DNA from: an uncultured Ignavibacteria bacterium
GTDB lineage: Bacteria > Zixibacteria > MSB-5A5 > SM1-73
Reading direction: 5' to 3'
NCBI GenBank assembly: GCA_964580215.1
Contig: CAZOJT010000001.1
Location: 126,475 to 190,474 of the forward strand
DNA length: 64,000 nt
Part shown: positions 9,633 to 63,790 of the stretch, one piece after another
Position numbering within the stretch: position 1 is the first letter of the stretch
Layout of the letters: the number at the start of each line of letters is the position of its first letter
Made by a program: the position numbers and the translations under genes
Notes under the pieces: generated by a model
What the model saw: only the letters and a program-made list of their open reading frames with translations
Told to the model about the DNA's origin: nothing
The model's database searches: none

Positions 9633-9775
9633 TGCGGGGCTGGTCATCCCATAGGCAGATCCCCCGCCTCTGGCGGGGGAGAGCCCCGCCTACGCGGGAC
9701 TTGTGGATGATAACATCCACAAGGAGCAGAAAGTCACGTAGGGTCCCACCTCAGGCGGGACGAACTCAGGCACTT
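9633..9775. repeat. REP-like palindrome cluster (family C copy)
   Basis: catgcggggctggtcatcccataggcagatcccccgcctctggcgggggagagccccgcctacg, plus hairpins gtggatgataacatccac and gtcccacctcaggcgggac. Confidence 0.6.
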
Positions 9776-22663: not shown

Positions 22664-22837
22664 AGCAAAAGTGTTGATTTTTCGTAGGTAGGGCACCCAT
22701 GCCCGACCACTCCCTTCCACTTTTTCACAGACCTCATATAATTGACTTGACAGCCCCTCAAGCCAATTATATATTTTGACGAATTTTAGAAAGTTTCAGA
22801 GTGGTTTGCGAATTCTAACAACAAGGATAGGTGAAAC

Positions 22838-23707
22838 GTGTCGAACAGAATACAAATAGATCTGCTAGAGAAAATAGTTGGAAAAAACGGTCTCCAGATC
22901 ATTTCCGAAAGAGTTATCCTGTCCCCGGAGGATGCTCCGGCTATATCCGAGATTGTAAAATTAGCCAACCAGGAGAAGTTCAAGATACTGCCATTAGGCT
23001 CAGGCTCGAGTCTTGATTGGTCAAAACTCTCCTCCCCTCGACAAGCTCAGGGCGGTGACAGTTCGACTTCGCTCACTGTCTCTGAACAAGGTCGAAGGGA
23101 GCGAAGTCGAACCGCAGAGAATGTGGTCATCTTGAAGTCAGACAGGCTGAACAGGATCAAAAAGGTGGTTCCCGAAGATCTGTATGTGATTGTTGAGGCT
23201 GGTTTTCCTCTTAAGGATTTAAACCGTCATCTGGAATCATTTAATCTGTTTTATCCACTTGCCCCGCAAAGTACGGGGCTGGCAGATACCAGTTCTGCTG
23301 GTACTATGGGGGGAGCGGTGGCAACTAACCTTAAAGGGGAATCCGGTCATAGGAATATTCAGACCAGGGAGTATGTTCTGGCATTGGAGGTGATTGATCC
23401 CGAAGGTCAGATCTTAAACGTGGGGGCAAAGACGTTTAAATCGGTGACCGGATACGATCTTCCTCGCCTTTTTGTAGGGTCCTGGGGGAGTCTGGGCTTT
23501 ATCAGCCAGATAAGCCTAAGATTGGTGCCTGCAAGAAAAAGAAATGATTATCCGGACATAATATTTGATCCAGCCAGAATAGATGAGATCAAAGGACCAA
23601 ACAACTTCAAAACCATCTTAAGTTCCCGCATCAAGAAGTCACTGGACCCTAACGGGGTTTTCTTTAGTTTCGATTCCTTCAGGATGAATCGTTTCCTTCG
23701 ATCCTGA
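22838..23707 (+). CDS. FAD-binding PCMH-type oxidoreductase subunit (GlcE-like), GTG start
   Basis: FAD_binding_4-like ...LGSGSS...AGTMGGAVATNLKGESGHRNIQTREYVLALEVIDPEGQILNVGAKTFKSVTGYDLPRLFVGSWGSLGFI. It carries an extra segment of about 28 aa relative to GlcE. Confidence 0.65.
   Translation: MSNRIQIDLLEKIVGKNGLQIISERVILSPEDAPAISEIVKLANQEKFKILPLGSGSSLDWSKLSSPRQAQGGDSSTSLTVSEQGRRERSRTAENVVILKSDRLNRIKKVVPEDLYVIVEAGFPLKDLNRHLESFNLFYPLAPQSTGLADTSSAGTMGGAVATNLKGESGHRNIQTREYVLALEVIDPEGQILNVGAKTFKSVTGYDLPRLFVGSWGSLGFISQISLRLVPARKRNDYPDIIFDPARIDEIKGPNNFKTILSSRIKKSLDPNGVFFSFDSFRMNRFLRS
23061..23112. repeat. Perfect 14-bp inverted repeat (gttcgacttcgctc ...25 nt... gagcgaagtcgaac) lying inside the FAD-protein CDS
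   Basis: Seen directly. It coincides with the extra SSPRQAQGGDSSTSLTVSEQGRRERSRTAEN segment of the protein. Confidence 0.6.
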
Positions 23708-23967
23708 GGCTTCCCTTCTCCTGCCAAAAGCGGGATTGGTGCGAGGCAGGTCCGAAGGGCAGGATGAATCCCTTGCTTGACAGGCAATTTATCTGCGGCT
23801 ATTGTCTGAGTCGGAAAAACCATCTAAAAACTTAATTTCCCTTTGGTGAAGCCTGCCACCCATGCACGGACGCGCCCGTCTGGGGAACACCAACAAGAAG
23901 CAAGGAAACAAATTTACCCAGAAAAATTATTGTTAAAACTTAATTCACCATAAACGTTATCAAAAAT

Positions 23968-24284: not shown

Positions 24285-25340
24285 ATGTCTGAAAAGATGC
24301 TTGCAGTTATGAAAAAAGAAAGGGCAACCGGAGCAGAGTTGGTAACGGTTGATATCCCAAAGATCAAACCGGATGAAGTGCTGGTCAAGGTGAAAGCCAC
24401 CTCCATCTGTGGAACCGATGCACATATTTATAATTGGGATGAATGGTCGCAAAGCCGGATCAAGCCTCCCATGATTTTCGGGCATGAGTTTGCTGGAGAG
24501 GTGGTGGAGGTGGGAAATTTAGTGAAAAGAATCAAAGTGGGCGACCTTATCTCAGCCGAGACCCATATCCCCTGTGGACATTGCTTTCAATGTCTAACCG
24601 GACGACAGCATATCTGTCAGAATCTGAAAATTCTGGGTGTGGATATTGATGGCTGTTTTGCCGAGTATGCGGCAATTCCGGAAGTTTGTGCCTGGAAAAA
24701 TGACAAAAACATTCCTGTCGAGATCGCCTCGGTTCAGGAGCCTTTTGGCAATGCTACTTATGCTGTAATGGAGAGCCAGGTTTCTGCAAAAGTTATCACC
24801 ATAATGGGGGATGGACCCATCGCCTGCTTTGCCACCGGGATAGCCAGGGCAGTGGGGGCGGCGAAGATCTTTAGCGTTGGAGAGTTCCCTTATCGGGTCA
24901 ATCTTTTAAAAAAGATGGGGGCGGATGTGGCTTTGAGCATTCTCACCCATGACACGGTGAAAGAGATTTTGGATGCTACCTCCGGTGAGGGGGTAGATGT
25001 AGTCCTGGAGATGACCGGCGCTCAAAAAGCAATTGACGATGGCTTTAAGATTTTGAAAAAAGGAGGAACTTTCACCGCCTTCGGTATTCCCCCCTCCAAG
25101 ATTGAGCTTGACTTAAACGATAGTGTAATCTTCAAAAATGCGAATATCATCGGCATAAGTGGAAGATTGATGTTTGAAACCTGGTTTCAATTGAGCAATC
25201 TTTTGAAATTTAAGAAAGTGGATGTCTCACCGGTGATAACTCATAAGATGCCCTTGAAGGATTTTCACAAAGGCATGGAGGCGGTGATCTCGAAAAAAAG
25301 AGAGGCGGGAAAGGTAGTCTTCTTCCCCGAGGCAAAATGA
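24285..25340 (+). CDS. tdh: L-threonine 3-dehydrogenase (zinc-dependent MDR family)
   Basis: VKATSICGTDAHIYNWDEWSQSRIKPPMIFGHEFAGEVVEVG and CGHCFQCLTGRQHIC (structural Zn cysteines). 351 aa, typical for Tdh. Confidence 0.9.
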   Translation: MSEKMLAVMKKERATGAELVTVDIPKIKPDEVLVKVKATSICGTDAHIYNWDEWSQSRIKPPMIFGHEFAGEVVEVGNLVKRIKVGDLISAETHIPCGHCFQCLTGRQHICQNLKILGVDIDGCFAEYAAIPEVCAWKNDKNIPVEIASVQEPFGNATYAVMESQVSAKVITIMGDGPIACFATGIARAVGAAKIFSVGEFPYRVNLLKKMGADVALSILTHDTVKEILDATSGEGVDVVLEMTGAQKAIDDGFKILKKGGTFTAFGIPPSKIELDLNDSVIFKNANIIGISGRLMFETWFQLSNLLKFKKVDVSPVITHKMPLKDFHKGMEAVISKKREAGKVVFFPEAK

Positions 25341-25457: not shown

Positions 25458-28400
25458 ATGAGTTTAAAGATATCCCAGCTAAAATCGAAGTGGAATAAAG
25501 AGAAGAACTTCTACAAAACACAAGAAGTCGGTTCCGGCGTTCAGATATTTGTCAAAGATGTTTTGAAATCGGAGGAGATATTCAATCTCAAGGTCGGATT
25601 CGCCTCTACCCCCTTGGAACGGCGCAGAAATGAGTTTGTCGAGGAGAAAAAAACAAAAGACTCAAGAAGAGCAGACATCGTCATTTATGTTTCCCCGGAT
25701 ATTACCATCCCTGTAGAAGTTGAAAAATATCAAAATATCGAAGCGGGAATAGGGCAACTCTTACAATACCAAGCAGATTTAGATAAGAAGTATGGTATCC
25801 TAACCGATGGTTATACTTGGCGATTTTACAATAACAATATTTTCCGAAAATTCACACTTAACCAAATCTTGGATGAAACAGAAGAATTCTTAGAATTTTG
25901 GAAAGAATATACTAAGCCGGAATTCTATTACCTTTCTTTCTTCGAATCCCCGGGTCAACTCACACTTCTCAAAGAAATAGAAAAATTACTTGTTGAGGAC
26001 AACAGGCTGATTTTCTTCGAAGACATTAGAAAACTCATTCGGGGCTTTAAGCATAAATTAAATATAGAGGGATACTTTGAGGGGCTAGAAAAGAAAGAAA
26101 GAGAGAAAAAAGCAGTTGAGATTACCTATGCTTACATTATTCAGTTTATTCTGTACAAGACCTTAGTGGATAATGACTTTGATGATTTTAAAAAAGAATT
26201 TTCAAAAAAACAGAATGGCATATATGAATGTCTGAAAGTGAAACAATTCGGGAAAATCTTGGGTATAATTAACGGTATTTCTAACGAGATATCAAAAAAT
26301 ATTTATCGCCCGTTTGCCAAAGAACAAGAATTTATAACAAACAAAATTTTGGAGCTTTTTAATAAGCCAAAAAATGAATTACACGAAGTCTCCCCGTGGT
26401 TAGACATATTTGTCTTTATCAAAAAGTATAATTTCGCAAGTGTAAAAAATGAAATCTTCGGATACATTTATGAGAATTATCTAAAAGAGCTTTATGAAGA
26501 TAAAAAGAAGGGGCAATATTTTACTGACCCGGCCGTGGTCAACTTTATGCTTCGGCAAGTCGGCTATACCCCAGAAAAGTTAAGAGAAAAACTCAGAAAC
26601 GACAAAGAAAGTATTTCCTTAATAGACCCTGCTTGTGGCAGTGGCACTTTTCTTTATAGTGCAACCAATGAGCTTATTCGTGCAGTGCCTGATGGGTCAG
26701 AGGAATCATCAAAAACAATTGAAGAATTAGTGGACAATAACATCTTTGGTTTGGATATTGCAGAGTTTCCACTTTATTTAGCAGAGATGAACATTTTAAT
26801 GCGGATGTTACCGCTTATTATCACCGAGAAATACAACAATCCAATTGATAAAAAAATTAAAGTTTTCTTAACTAAAGATAGTGTTGCAGAGTTTATGGAC
26901 GCAGGCATAGAAAATACCATCAACGATATTGATGTTAGGCGGGGGCAATTTCCACTTTTTACACGAAAGCTTGAGCTTGGATACAAAAGTTATGTGAGAG
27001 ATGAAGGCGATTTGTCGGAGATGAAGCAAAGTATGCGTCCCCCTCGCCGACGTTTTGATTTTGTTATTGGCAATCCGCCGTATGTTGGATATAACGAGTG
27101 TTCTAAGCAGGACGTCTTGGTTTTTAATTTATTGAAAAAAGGCGAGGTTAGTCTCGGTGACATTTATAGTGTTAATCTACACAGTATCCCCAATACTCGA
27201 AAAAAAAGACCGCCGAAACCAAACCTATATGCTTTTTTTATTGCAACTGGTTTAGTATTGCTCAAAGACAACGGAAAACTTTGTTACATTATCCCACAGA
27301 CAATTCTAACTGCAGGTGATTTGGATGTATTACGCTATCATTTGGCAAAATTTACGACTATTGAGAAAATCATTACTTTCAGTGGTAAGATGTTTATTGG
27401 TCGTGGTATTAAACAGAATAAGCCAGTAGCTACTTCAAGTCTTATTTTTATTGTTTCAAGAAAAGTACCTTCCAGATTGCATCAAGTTGAAATTGTCAAT
27501 TATGAAAAGTCTGGGGATAGCATAGAGGATACTTTACAGAATATCTTGGACGGTAAGAGAATTGATAGGAAGAAAATCTTACAGAGTAAACTTCTCCAAA
27601 ATGTAGCAAATTGGAATTTTGTTAAGCAGGGTAAAGCATTTTGGGGTTTTTGTGAGGCGTACAAGAGAAACACAGAAAATATGGGAATTTATTACAATCA
27701 TGCGATGGCTGAGCATAAATTCAAAAGTAAATTTTATTTCGACATCGGATATAATATAAACGAGAAAATTATGCTCAAACATCCTGAGGGCAAAGGCCTT
27801 ATTTTTAGCTACCCCGATTTAAAAGACAATTTCTCGACAATTAAAGAATTCAGAGGGTACTGGCCAAACATTAGAAGTGGTACCTCGAAGTATATCATTA
27901 AGTTATTGAAGGCAAATCAAGGTTACAATTTATTGGATAGTCCACACAAAATTATTTGGTCTTACGCCAATCCTAAAAAATTTCACTTTACTTCGACTCC
28001 GGTAATTTGGGCTCGTAATCAAATATGTGCTATCGGTAGCAAAAATAAAAAGGAGCTTCTTTACCTTTTTGCAATATTAAACTCCAAAGTCACTAACGTT
28101 ATTCTTAATTCTCATTTAAAAAGTGAACAGGAAAAAGACTTATTAGTTTCTATTACAGCAGTTAAAGAATTTGTCCGTGTTCCCCGAATCTCGGACCACA
28201 CTCAATTTATCAAAGATGAAATCATCAAACGGACAGAGGAGATGCTTGAATTGGAAGAAAGGACACTTTCGGATTTTGTTGATTTTTCAGGCATTCTATT
28301 GCAAAAGTTCAAGGACATAAAAGTGAAGAAAAATTACCTTGTCGCAATAGATGGAGGCAAAAAAACGAAACTCAAAATCACGGGAGACCCTGCGCTTGTT

Positions 28401-28649
28401 GAAAAGGCTTTGCTCAGGGAATTCGAGGAGTCTGAATTACCGCTACAAGCTCGGAGTATTAGACTCTCTGCTCTTCGCAAGCTACCAGTTATTGACCTTC
28501 AAAAGCAAGCACAGCTAAGGAAATACATTGATGACTTAGTTTTTGCTCTGTATTTCAAAGTGAATTTGGAGAAAATAGGTTTTGAAAAGGCTAAATTAAT
28601 TGAAAAAAAGTGCGAGGAAAATAAATTTTACAAAACCATCCAATCTTAG
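25458..28649 (+). CDS. Single-polypeptide Type IIG/IIL-like restriction-modification enzyme (N-terminal nuclease-like domain + gamma-class N6-adenine methyltransferase + C-terminal putative target-recognition region)
   Basis: MTase motifs in gamma order: X GQYFTDPAVVNFMLRQV, I LIDPACGSGTFLY, IV DFVIGNPPYVGY. The N-terminus has RADIVIYVSPDITIPVEVEKY (PD..ExK-like). 1063 aa and markedly AT-rich versus its flanks. No hsdR/hsdS or BREX partners nearby. Confidence 0.65.
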   Translation: MSLKISQLKSKWNKEKNFYKTQEVGSGVQIFVKDVLKSEEIFNLKVGFASTPLERRRNEFVEEKKTKDSRRADIVIYVSPDITIPVEVEKYQNIEAGIGQLLQYQADLDKKYGILTDGYTWRFYNNNIFRKFTLNQILDETEEFLEFWKEYTKPEFYYLSFFESPGQLTLLKEIEKLLVEDNRLIFFEDIRKLIRGFKHKLNIEGYFEGLEKKEREKKAVEITYAYIIQFILYKTLVDNDFDDFKKEFSKKQNGIYECLKVKQFGKILGIINGISNEISKNIYRPFAKEQEFITNKILELFNKPKNELHEVSPWLDIFVFIKKYNFASVKNEIFGYIYENYLKELYEDKKKGQYFTDPAVVNFMLRQVGYTPEKLREKLRNDKESISLIDPACGSGTFLYSATNELIRAVPDGSEESSKTIEELVDNNIFGLDIAEFPLYLAEMNILMRMLPLIITEKYNNPIDKKIKVFLTKDSVAEFMDAGIENTINDIDVRRGQFPLFTRKLELGYKSYVRDEGDLSEMKQSMRPPRRRFDFVIGNPPYVGYNECSKQDVLVFNLLKKGEVSLGDIYSVNLHSIPNTRKKRPPKPNLYAFFIATGLVLLKDNGKLCYIIPQTILTAGDLDVLRYHLAKFTTIEKIITFSGKMFIGRGIKQNKPVATSSLIFIVSRKVPSRLHQVEIVNYEKSGDSIEDTLQNILDGKRIDRKKILQSKLLQNVANWNFVKQGKAFWGFCEAYKRNTENMGIYYNHAMAEHKFKSKFYFDIGYNINEKIMLKHPEGKGLIFSYPDLKDNFSTIKEFRGYWPNIRSGTSKYIIKLLKANQGYNLLDSPHKIIWSYANPKKFHFTSTPVIWARNQICAIGSKNKKELLYLFAILNSKVTNVILNSHLKSEQEKDLLVSITAVKEFVRVPRISDHTQFIKDEIIKRTEEMLELEERTLSDFVDFSGILLQKFKDIKVKKNYLVAIDGGKKTKLKITGDPALVEKALLREFEESELPLQARSIRLSALRKLPVIDLQKQAQLRKYIDDLVFALYFKVNLEKIGFEKAKLIEKKCEENKFYKTIQS

Positions 28650-30835: not shown

Positions 30836-30895
30836 ATCCCCCGCCAAAGGTGTGAACCACATGGTTTACACCAAAGGCGGGGGAGAATGGACGCC
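30836..30895. repeat. Long GC-rich hairpin (cccccgccaaaggtgtgaaccacatggtttacaccaaaggcggggg)
   Basis: Related hairpins occur at 24222-24256 (ggaggtgtgaaccatacggttcatac) and 37693-37720 (ggtatgaactgtatggttcatacc). Confidence 0.5.
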
Positions 30896-48663: not shown

Positions 48664-48937
48664 CATTTACTAAGAGGAGCAGGAAACAGTTTACATCTTA
48701 TTATTCGTATGAATGTGCGTATGCACTCATACGAGCTTCGCATTGATTTTTTCTCCCACACCTGTTTTGGGCTTGACTTGAAATTCGTATGAATGCATAC
48801 GCATCCCCCTTTAGTAAAGGGGGATTTAGGGGGATTTTCCAAGTTTCAAATGCGTCCCGCAAAATGCGGGACGAATCCCCCCTTCCCCCCCATTTTTTTA
48901 GGGGGGATGTAAACAATTATATGCTCCTCTTAGTAAC
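48664..48937. mobile_element. MITE-like element B, copy 1 (about 275 bp, TIR ttactaagaggagcaggaaacagtttacat)
   Basis: Terminal inverted repeats plus internal palindromes ttcgtatgaatgtgcgtatgcactcatacga and G-tract/C-tract hairpins. It sits between the mcsB stop and the clpC start. Confidence 0.65.
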
Positions 48938-56426: not shown

Positions 56427-56572
56427 TAAGGAGAGCATATAATTGTTTACATCCCCCCTTTAGAAAAGGGGGGAAGGGGGGATTCGTATGAATGTGCGTA
56501 TGCACTCATACGAGCATACGCACATTCATACGAATAATAAGATGTAAACTGTTTCCTGCTCCTCTTAGTAAG
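56427..56572. mobile_element. MITE-like element B, copy 2 (internally deleted, about 145 bp)
   Basis: Same ends as the copies at 48664 and 63526: ..gagagcatataattgtttacatcccccc... and ...atgtaaactgtttcctgctcctcttagtaa. Confidence 0.6.
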
Positions 56573-63525: not shown

Positions 63526-63790
63526 TTACTAAGGGGAGCATATAATTGTTTACATCCCCCCTAAAGAAATGGGGGGAAGGGGGGATTCGTATGAATGCAT
63601 ACGCATTTGAAACTTGGAAAATCCCCCTAAATCCCCCTTTACTAAAGGGGGATTCGTATGAATGCATACGCATTTCAAGTCAAGCCCAAAACAGGTGTGG
63701 GAGAAAAAATCAATGCGAAGCTCGTATGAGTGCATACGCACATTCATACGAATAATAAAATGTAAACTGTTTCCTGCTCCTCTTAGTAAA
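63526..63790. mobile_element. MITE-like element B, copy 3 (full length, opposite orientation to copy 1)
   Basis: TIRs ttactaagg(g)gagcatataattgtttacat ... atgtaaactgtttcctgctcctcttagtaa. The internal ggggattcgtatgaatgcatacgcattt is duplicated. Confidence 0.65.

Follow-up and report, generated by a model that had tools for sequence, protein, structure and literature searches.

An 81-nt copy of a dispersed, modular palindromic repeat in the reading frame of a flavin-binding protein gene from an uncultured Zixibacteria bacterium

A gene for a flavin-binding protein in an uncultured Zixibacteria bacterium encloses a stretch of DNA with a perfect inverted repeat. Is this stretch an old loop of the protein that happens to be palindromic, or a piece of non-coding repeat DNA that landed in the gene and was tolerated there?

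The host protein and its repeat-derived segments

The window, i.e. the whole 64-kb stretch of DNA that was analysed, carries the host gene on the plus strand at 22838..23707 (GTG start, 870 nt, 289 aa), with a promoter-like site, TTGACA-17-TATATT, upstream of it at 22747-22775. The protein matches the Pfam family FAD_binding_4 (E 4.6e-23), and the match is split around the insert. FAD_binding_4 is the sole domain found, the C-terminal cap domain being absent. The NCBIfam models for GlcE and GlcD score 87 bits and 104 bits, against cut-offs of 284 and 568, respectively. With scores below both cut-offs and no cap domain, the host protein is best classed, judging from its domain content, as a short VAO/PCMH-type flavin-binding protein and not as GlcE proper. 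The label "GlcE-like" of the original prediction is a loose one. A database search returned 604 relatives with a usual length of 248 aa, and those that are named belong to Zixibacteria. The predicted fold resembles the FAD domains of D-lactate and D-2-hydroxyglutarate dehydrogenases in a structure match, and the alignment shows that all invariant family residues are retained. The 41 residues beyond the family norm are made up of three separate repeat-derived segments of 27, 7 and 7 residues.

The largest of these segments occupies 23036..23116 on the plus strand (81 nt, residues P67-A93), with a boundary that is ambiguous by 1 nt; the extra in-frame stretch, estimated beforehand at about 28 residues, therefore comprises 27 codons. 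It sits between ...SKLSS and ENVVILK... and is missing in the closest relatives (P0002, P0004, P0005, P0007 and P0008). The homologue alignment, which had been proposed as a check, delimits it as one 81-nt block: the gene measures 870 nt versus 789 nt in P0002, its closest relative, the codon alignment has one clean gap, and a comparison at the DNA level shows that the P0002 and P0008 genes are exactly without the segment. The junction of the empty site reads ...CCTCT|GAGAAT..., and the comparison of filled and empty sites reveals no target duplication longer than about 1-2 nt. In a solved D-lactate dehydrogenase (PDB chain) the same interval has 12 residues versus 39 in the window protein.

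Within the insert, the arms GTTCGACTTCGCTC (23061..23074) and GAGCGAAGTCGAAC (23099..23112), both given on the plus strand, form the predicted 14-bp inverted repeat with perfect complementarity, although the spacer is 24 nt and not 25 nt long; the pairing can be extended to 17 nt at 94%. The left arm contains the core TTCGACTTCGCTC, and the right arm contains the same core reversed, GAGCGAAGTCGAA. When the insert is folded as DNA, the two arms make up the dominant stem, and folding beats that of shuffled controls (z -2.45 as DNA, -2.61 as RNA). The encoded peptide, PRQAQGGDSSTSLTVSEQGRRERSRTA, is Ser/Arg/Glu-rich and the frame stays open, just as had been described. We also modelled the protein with AlphaFold2 on the basis of 120 aligned sequences (mean pLDDT 76.8). 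Residues 67-93 are modelled as coil, the 10-residue blocks over them averaging pLDDT values of 64, 59 and 54, whereas the flanking blocks reach 78 and 76 and the remaining N-terminal core about 90 or more. Such a low-confidence coil between well-predicted elements is in keeping with the surface loop that the earlier reading had suggested. From the low pLDDT and the lack of secondary structure we infer that the insert is a tolerated, exposed loop.

A second in-frame palindromic insert, GCCCCGCAAAGTACGGGGCTG, lies at 23261..23281 on the plus strand (21 nt) and encodes the seven residues APQSTGL, which have a pLDDT of about 51. The window, P0002 and P0003 genes have it, whereas P0006, P0008, P0070 and P0081 are without it at the same codon boundary; this distribution does not match that of the 81-nt insert. 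A hairpin related to GCCCCGCAAAGTACGGGGCTG is found at window position 48856, and by its resemblance the 21-nt insert is assigned to a relative of the CCCGCC-NNN-GGCGGG hairpin as its supplier. The C-terminal tail FRMNRFLRS with its stop codon (23678..23707, plus strand) is read from yet another repeat motif, CTTCAGGATGAATC...CCTTCGATCCTGA. In P0003 and P0006 this tail is missing, and the genes terminate with ...DSLV and a stop codon. The tail motif recurs reversed in an extra FILKIHPE segment of P0003 and downstream of the window gene at 23758-23771.

Two observations concern the surroundings of these segments. A composite repeat at 23678-23790 (CAGGATGAAT / CCTTCGAYCCTGAGG / GTGCGAGGCAGG...GAAGGGCAGGATGAATCC) gives the last 9 codons and the stop of the ORF and runs on downstream; related sequence is found behind the orthologous gene in L012 and L009 as well as at an unrelated intergenic site (L003:5066-5125). 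Moreover, the P0003 gene (L006:10523-10564) and P0004 carry a 9-residue insert, (A/G)FILKIHPE, from a tandem ATTCATCCTGAAG. It is missing from P0002, the sister of P0004 with 100% bootstrap, so that the indel distribution conflicts with the tree.

It had been suggested that the 81-nt insert belongs to one of the abundant palindromic families of this genome. This suggestion is not supported by the window: an nhmmer profile of the repeat family hits one site in the 64 kb, the insert itself (E=4.8e-27), and neither profile nor sequence searches find a second copy there. The abundant hairpin is CCCGCC-NNN-GGCGGG, with about 17 sites and 26 matches on both strands versus 1.2 expected (window positions 9663, 9745, 14988, 18347, 19998, 22568, 22630, 23720, 30840/30867, 48856, 51660, 51864, 51889, 56754, 56798 and 57949). 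Two copies are situated just upstream of the FAD gene, and a third directly follows its stop codon. The loop of this hairpin frequently houses the 82-nt element in other genomes.

The window holds further repeats and one conspicuous ORF. A palindromic family, ATTCGTATGAATG...GCATACGCA, which is unrelated to the 81-nt element, occurs at 48716-48803, 56482-56535 and 63652-63753, the copy at 56482-56535 being a perfect 22-bp inverted repeat. At 30837-30884, as well as in L171 and L140, a palindrome of 20-24 nt of the GGTATGAACCGTATGGTTCATACC type is nested in the CCCGCC hairpin loop, with the loop bases AAAGG or CCACAGG repeated on either side; these repeated bases may either have arisen by target duplication or belong to the element. 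An ORF of 1063 aa at 25458-28649 shows motifs resembling those of an N6-adenine methyltransferase or type IIG restriction enzyme and lies in a low-GC stretch. Since the GC content is 0.35 at 26001-28000 versus about 0.44 elsewhere, an acquired island is suggested at 25458-28649, adjoining a threonine dehydrogenase-like gene at 24285-25340.

A dispersed repeat composed of mini-hairpins

A scan of metagenome contigs with the 24-nt hairpin GACAGTTCGRCTYCGCTCACTGTC as query yielded 85 stretches. Because their flanks are unrelated, the dispersed copies are not contaminating fragments of the FAD gene. The consensus of 82 metagenome-contig copies, CCCTTCGACAAGCTCAGGGCGGTGACAGTTCGACTTCGCTCACTGTCCCTGAGCAAGGTCGAAGGGAGCGAAGTCGAACCGC (about 82 nt), is identical to the window copy at 79 of 82 positions (96%). 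Intergenic copies, for which a search had been proposed, are common: a rough ORF call places 68 of 86 copies outside any predicted ORF, and a full-length relative of the element in another Zixibacteria genome (L039) is placed between ispF and a DedA-like gene. With respect to the adjacent genes the copies are randomly oriented, 7 pointing the same way and 11 the opposite way.

Other genes have received in-frame copies as well, which bears out the idea of a palindromic repeat family able to insert into genes. In a Kbl-like aminotransferase the Pfam domain spans the insert, which adds 14 residues in comparison with PDB 3tqx. Further in-frame copies are located in MutS2, just before domain V, in Wzi, in a 1086-aa PD40/peptidase protein and in a TPR/SH3 protein. 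Three of the six reading frames of the element are free of stops, and all intragenic copies use one of these three, a result that is partly a product of the screen, which demanded an open frame. The repeat also explains odd low-complexity segments and spurious peptides, such as RQAQGG, FDKLR, LTVPSEVEG and SLSKVEG, in proteins predicted from metagenomes. As a separate observation, an open frame spanning an element copy at L175:3346-4221 encodes a tandem peptide, AERSETHR, with at least six repeats; this array apparently arises from a short repeated DNA sequence, GAGCGAAGTC..., which is related to the core.

At gathering thresholds, Rfam recognises only one tRNA in 136 kb (the window and nine carrier loci), and a full-text literature search with 12-15-nt pieces of the core gave only chance matches in unrelated papers.

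The anatomy of the element became apparent from a scan of a genome collection for its two arms (TTCGRCTYCGCTC, 2-32 nt, GAGCGRAGYCGAA). At least 120 stretches were found, of which chance would account, by a rough estimate, for a few. The matches listed stem from Cyanobacteria, Bacteroidota, Scalindua, Leucothrix, Moraxellaceae, Spirochaetes, Desulfuromonadales, Zixibacteria and others, and among them the 14-mer is conserved, while the 3-6 nt on either side of each vary and are mutually complementary. In 258 distinct modules the run of pairs adjoining the core averages 4.7 versus 1.4 with shuffled partners. In 110 modules from across the phyla, the three pairs by the T-A closing pair are about 90% paired, with all Watson-Crick types represented, and their covariation amounts to 0.588 versus 0.191 after shuffling. 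A conserved 14-mer with varying yet paired flanks identifies the repeat unit, as far as covariation can tell, as a mini-hairpin with a conserved 12-nt loop. The loop motif TTCGAC...CTCA is conserved, and the stems covary.

In the window, this unit is represented by the module GACAG-TTCGACTTCGCTCA-CTGTC at 23056..23079 (plus strand), a 5-bp stem plus T-A closing pair around the 12-nt conserved loop. The complete window element consists of four mini-hairpin units, two forward and two reverse, the first deriving from the variant core TTCGAC-AAG-CTCA. Covariation extends to the closing stem of the long hairpin, RYGGT/ACCRY, where one pair is UA in 14 and CG in 12 of 26 copies, without mismatches. 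It is important to note that the arms of a DNA palindrome can covary simply because of the way palindromes are copied, without selection on structure.

Intergenic copies mostly lie between short inverted repeats of varied sequence and therefore at the apex of other hairpins, some of which are of the CCCGCC...GGCGGG type and some GTAG-type REPs. The outer flanking stem was assessed in free register, its register varying between copies, and averages 6.3 versus 4.6 for mismatched partners. The copy in the FAD gene has no flanking inverted repeats of this sort.

Larger arrangements were noted in several genomes. In Tenacibaculum skagerrakense (L042:720-1185), three two-arm hairpins follow each other at distances of 159 and 259 nt, each within a longer repeated unit; these form a local array and are not dispersed single copies. 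In Pseudanabaena and relatives (L013, L023, L027, L038, L064 and L077) and in Leucothrix (L015, L030, L041, L078 and L088), the two-arm hairpin is central in an element of about 110-130 nt bounded by terminal inverted repeats of its own, which end in TATAG/CTATA, with the core at the apex of the larger palindrome. Two structural candidates for the element itself were discarded. The hammerhead-like ribozyme motif seen in some copies (CUGANGA...GAA) lacks a stem II and, on inspection by eye, is not conserved in the window copy; as for a mimicry of the tRNA T-arm by TTCGAC, the flanks form no T-stem.

Carriers, empty sites and competing explanations

The segment is missing from 105 of the 120 relatives listed. 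We calculated a bootstrapped neighbour-joining tree from about 240 columns, excluding indel columns; its deeper nodes are weak. The window protein clusters with the insert-free P0002, P0004 and P0005 (90% bootstrap), P0003 clusters with the insert-free P0010 (82%), and P0006 stands apart. On the strength of this tree, the carriers of the insert are not monophyletic. Two histories can account for this: the element inserted repeatedly, or it inserted once and was then precisely lost several times and subjected to gene conversion.

The three gene copies (window, P0003 and P0006) share identical left and right junctions. Between lineages their insert DNA is 91% identical, whereas third positions of the gene's codons reach 61-72% (Fisher p 0.02, 0.005). 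Compared with the family consensus, the copies show 96-97% identity, and all of their differences are private. P0003 and P0006 each have an extra nested left-arm segment of 30 nt, and these segments differ from one another. The variant of P0003 is also found in the dispersed copies L138, L192 and L198, and that of P0006 in L180 and L212.

In a second clade of the same protein family, clade B, this position is occupied by a related element. One such gene copy, L009:394-495, is 93% identical to an intergenic copy situated 9 kb off on the same contig (L009:9827-9917), and the filled clade-B site shows no target duplication of 2 nt or more. All members of clade B retain the element in full or as a remnant of eight residues (GSTSSLQA), which means that it does decay in place, through internal deletions that preserve the frame.

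What, then, is the segment? An ancestral or lineage-specific low-complexity loop with a coincidental inverted repeat would be in line with the tolerance of this site to length variation in the wider FAD_binding_4 family. We nevertheless consider such a loop highly improbable, because the segment is missing from the closest homologues and most of the relatives listed, shows 96% DNA identity to a repeat that recurs, between unrelated flanks, at dozens of unrelated loci, and has third codon positions that are more conserved than those of the gene. The original prediction had itself named a conserved segment of the same length in homologues, together with a lack of other copies, as evidence to the contrary; instead, the closest homologues are without it and copies exist elsewhere. 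An assembly or binning artefact, e.g. a chimeric join through the repeat, has to be kept in mind, since repeats can misassemble metagenome-assembled genomes. Yet an identical protein of 289 aa is found on independent assemblies stemming from four data sets or more (Logan SRR9700624 and SRR9705733, NCBI, and JGI 3300031554), and related genes from other samples have the element at the same place. The recurrence on independent assemblies therefore speaks against an artefact, which we regard as next to impossible. A co-opted insert, in which an mRNA or DNA hairpin regulates the gene (pausing, processing or stability) or the charged loop is functional, so that selection explains the conservation, could account for the high conservation relative to the synonymous sites of the gene and for the better-than-shuffled folding. 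However, closely related orthologues function without the insert, the element also resides in unrelated genes and in intergenic DNA without orientation bias, and the peptide is predicted to be disordered. Co-option thus appears unlikely.

The segment very probably goes back to a modular palindromic repeat, dispersed and non-coding, which entered the gene as a copy and was tolerated there. It is a copy of a dispersed repeat, in frame, free of stops and modelled as a poorly ordered loop; one point against this explanation is that the 64-kb window contains a single copy of the element. The question of repeated independent insertion is a separate step, and only with this step does another scenario compete, namely one ancient insertion followed by several precise deletions, with gene conversion keeping the copy near the consensus and swapping internal variants. 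The identical junctions of the three gene copies argue for such a history, as do the full-or-remnant state of clade B, which is indicative of in-frame decay in place, and the P0006 insert, which is without 15 nt located between two GTCGA direct repeats. Against it stand the requirement of at least three footprint-free losses restoring the ancestral TCT|GAG junction, the lack of flanking direct repeats able to drive slippage, and the lack of derived substitutions common to the three gene copies. An ancient insertion is thus a realistic possibility, albeit not the one that we favour.

For the preferred reading, i.e. a repeat copy that landed in the gene, the persistence of the insert is readily explained: its length is a multiple of three, it occupies one of the three stop-free frames of the element, and it is accommodated in a permissive loop that immediately precedes the first strand following the G-S-G-S flavin loop. 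According to the model, the outcome is a disordered Ser/Arg/Glu-rich loop of 27 residues, with the conserved enzyme residues kept. As to the process itself, the element would move as a structured single strand with the conserved-loop mini-hairpin as its building block, and it might, with low confidence, owe its mobility to a trans-acting enzyme capable of footprint-free insertion and excision. The codon boundary may be a preferred target that was struck several times, or else a resident copy may have been homogenised by gene conversion and at times precisely lost. The closest precedents are the HUH/Y1 transposases, which move IS200/IS605 elements and REPs. A trans-acting movement of single-stranded DNA without a footprint would agree with the seamless filled and empty sites, with the conserved loop of the hairpin unit and with the tendency of copies to sit at hairpin apices. 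Alternatively, the apex and loop positions are merely where insertions survive selection. No transposase or mobilising gene lies between neighbouring copies in two other genomes (Leucothrix and Pseudanabaena), where ordinary metabolic genes were found, coding for a sugar-kinase-like protein and a large conserved protein, and 13 stretches from a scan of viral contigs gave no lead to such a gene.

Relation to known repeats and implications

The proposed likeness to Rickettsia palindromic elements (RPEs) holds as an analogy and not as membership. RPEs, known from the work of Ogata and colleagues, are roughly 100-150 nt long. The element shares with them that small palindromic repeats are dispersed between genes and, in frame, within functional-looking genes, that a peptide is added at a tolerated place, and that a given gene is filled in some lineages and empty in others. 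In contrast to RPEs, it measures 81 nt, is modular, nested and built from mini-hairpins, and resides in Zixibacteria and other sediment bacteria instead of obligate intracellular Rickettsia. The two are likened by behaviour, not by sequence.

REPs and REPINs, imperfect palindromes of 20-40 nt with an unpaired GTAG or CGTC tag at one end, are short hairpin repeats, often in inverted pairs, that are mainly intergenic and occasionally intragenic; their proposed mover is a Y1/HUH transposase acting without target duplication (Di Nocera et al. 2013, PMC3733652). The element is likewise a short hairpin-forming repeat, frequently in inverted pairs, mostly intergenic and sometimes in coding regions. 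However, neither the window copy nor the consensus contains GTAG, CTAC, CGTC or GACG, the loop is conserved and the stems vary whereas REPs have conserved stems, and in metagenome copies the element is a guest inside GTAG-type REP hairpins. No RAYT gene is present in the two inter-copy intervals inspected, both of which contain ordinary genes.

With MITEs the element has in common an overlapping size range, a non-coding nature, multiple copies and TIR-like ends, TTCGAC ... GTCGAA; the ends CYTTCGAC ... GTCGAACC are inverted core copies. Unlike typical MITEs, it is nested and modular rather than a deleted IS, and the 81-nt difference between filled and empty sites leaves no duplicated flank of 2 nt or more, which also holds for clade B. 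The small dispersed repeats (SDRs) of Nostocaceae, reportedly described by Elhai et al. in 2008, are said to consist of units of about 21-27 nt that form hairpins with compensatory changes and show nesting. Compared by description, the element matches them in its hairpin units of about 21-27 nt with compensatory changes, nested in own copies and in other repeats. The difference lies in the range of hosts, as SDRs have been reported only in Nostocaceae (PMC5861425) and the module described here occurs in many phyla.

By analogy, the element is akin in behaviour to RPEs and to intragenic REPs (PMC3733652) and may be regarded as a further case of a known kind of repeat, one that is not in Rfam. 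In-frame palindromic repeats in genes are best known from Rickettsia and from some REP cases, and they are now found in an uncultured sediment phylum. A bolder interpretation, which we consider rather doubtful, is that the TTCGAC-N3-4-CTCA module with its variable 4-6-bp stem, common to Cyanobacteria, Bacteroidota, Planctomycetota, Proteobacteria, Spirochaetes and Zixibacteria, is the unit of an undescribed class of very small, structure-dependent mobile DNA. Such a module would nest into hairpin apices, build composites and be able to strike the same coding site repeatedly; if true, this would imply a conserved enzyme or host process that recognises the loop. For the biology of mobile DNA, a cross-phylum module with conserved loop and variable stem, its nesting at hairpin apices, and the differing variants at one codon boundary in sister lineages are leads worth following. 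Together, these leads offer a tractable system in which to study the movement of tiny non-coding repeats and the possible targeting of their insertion.
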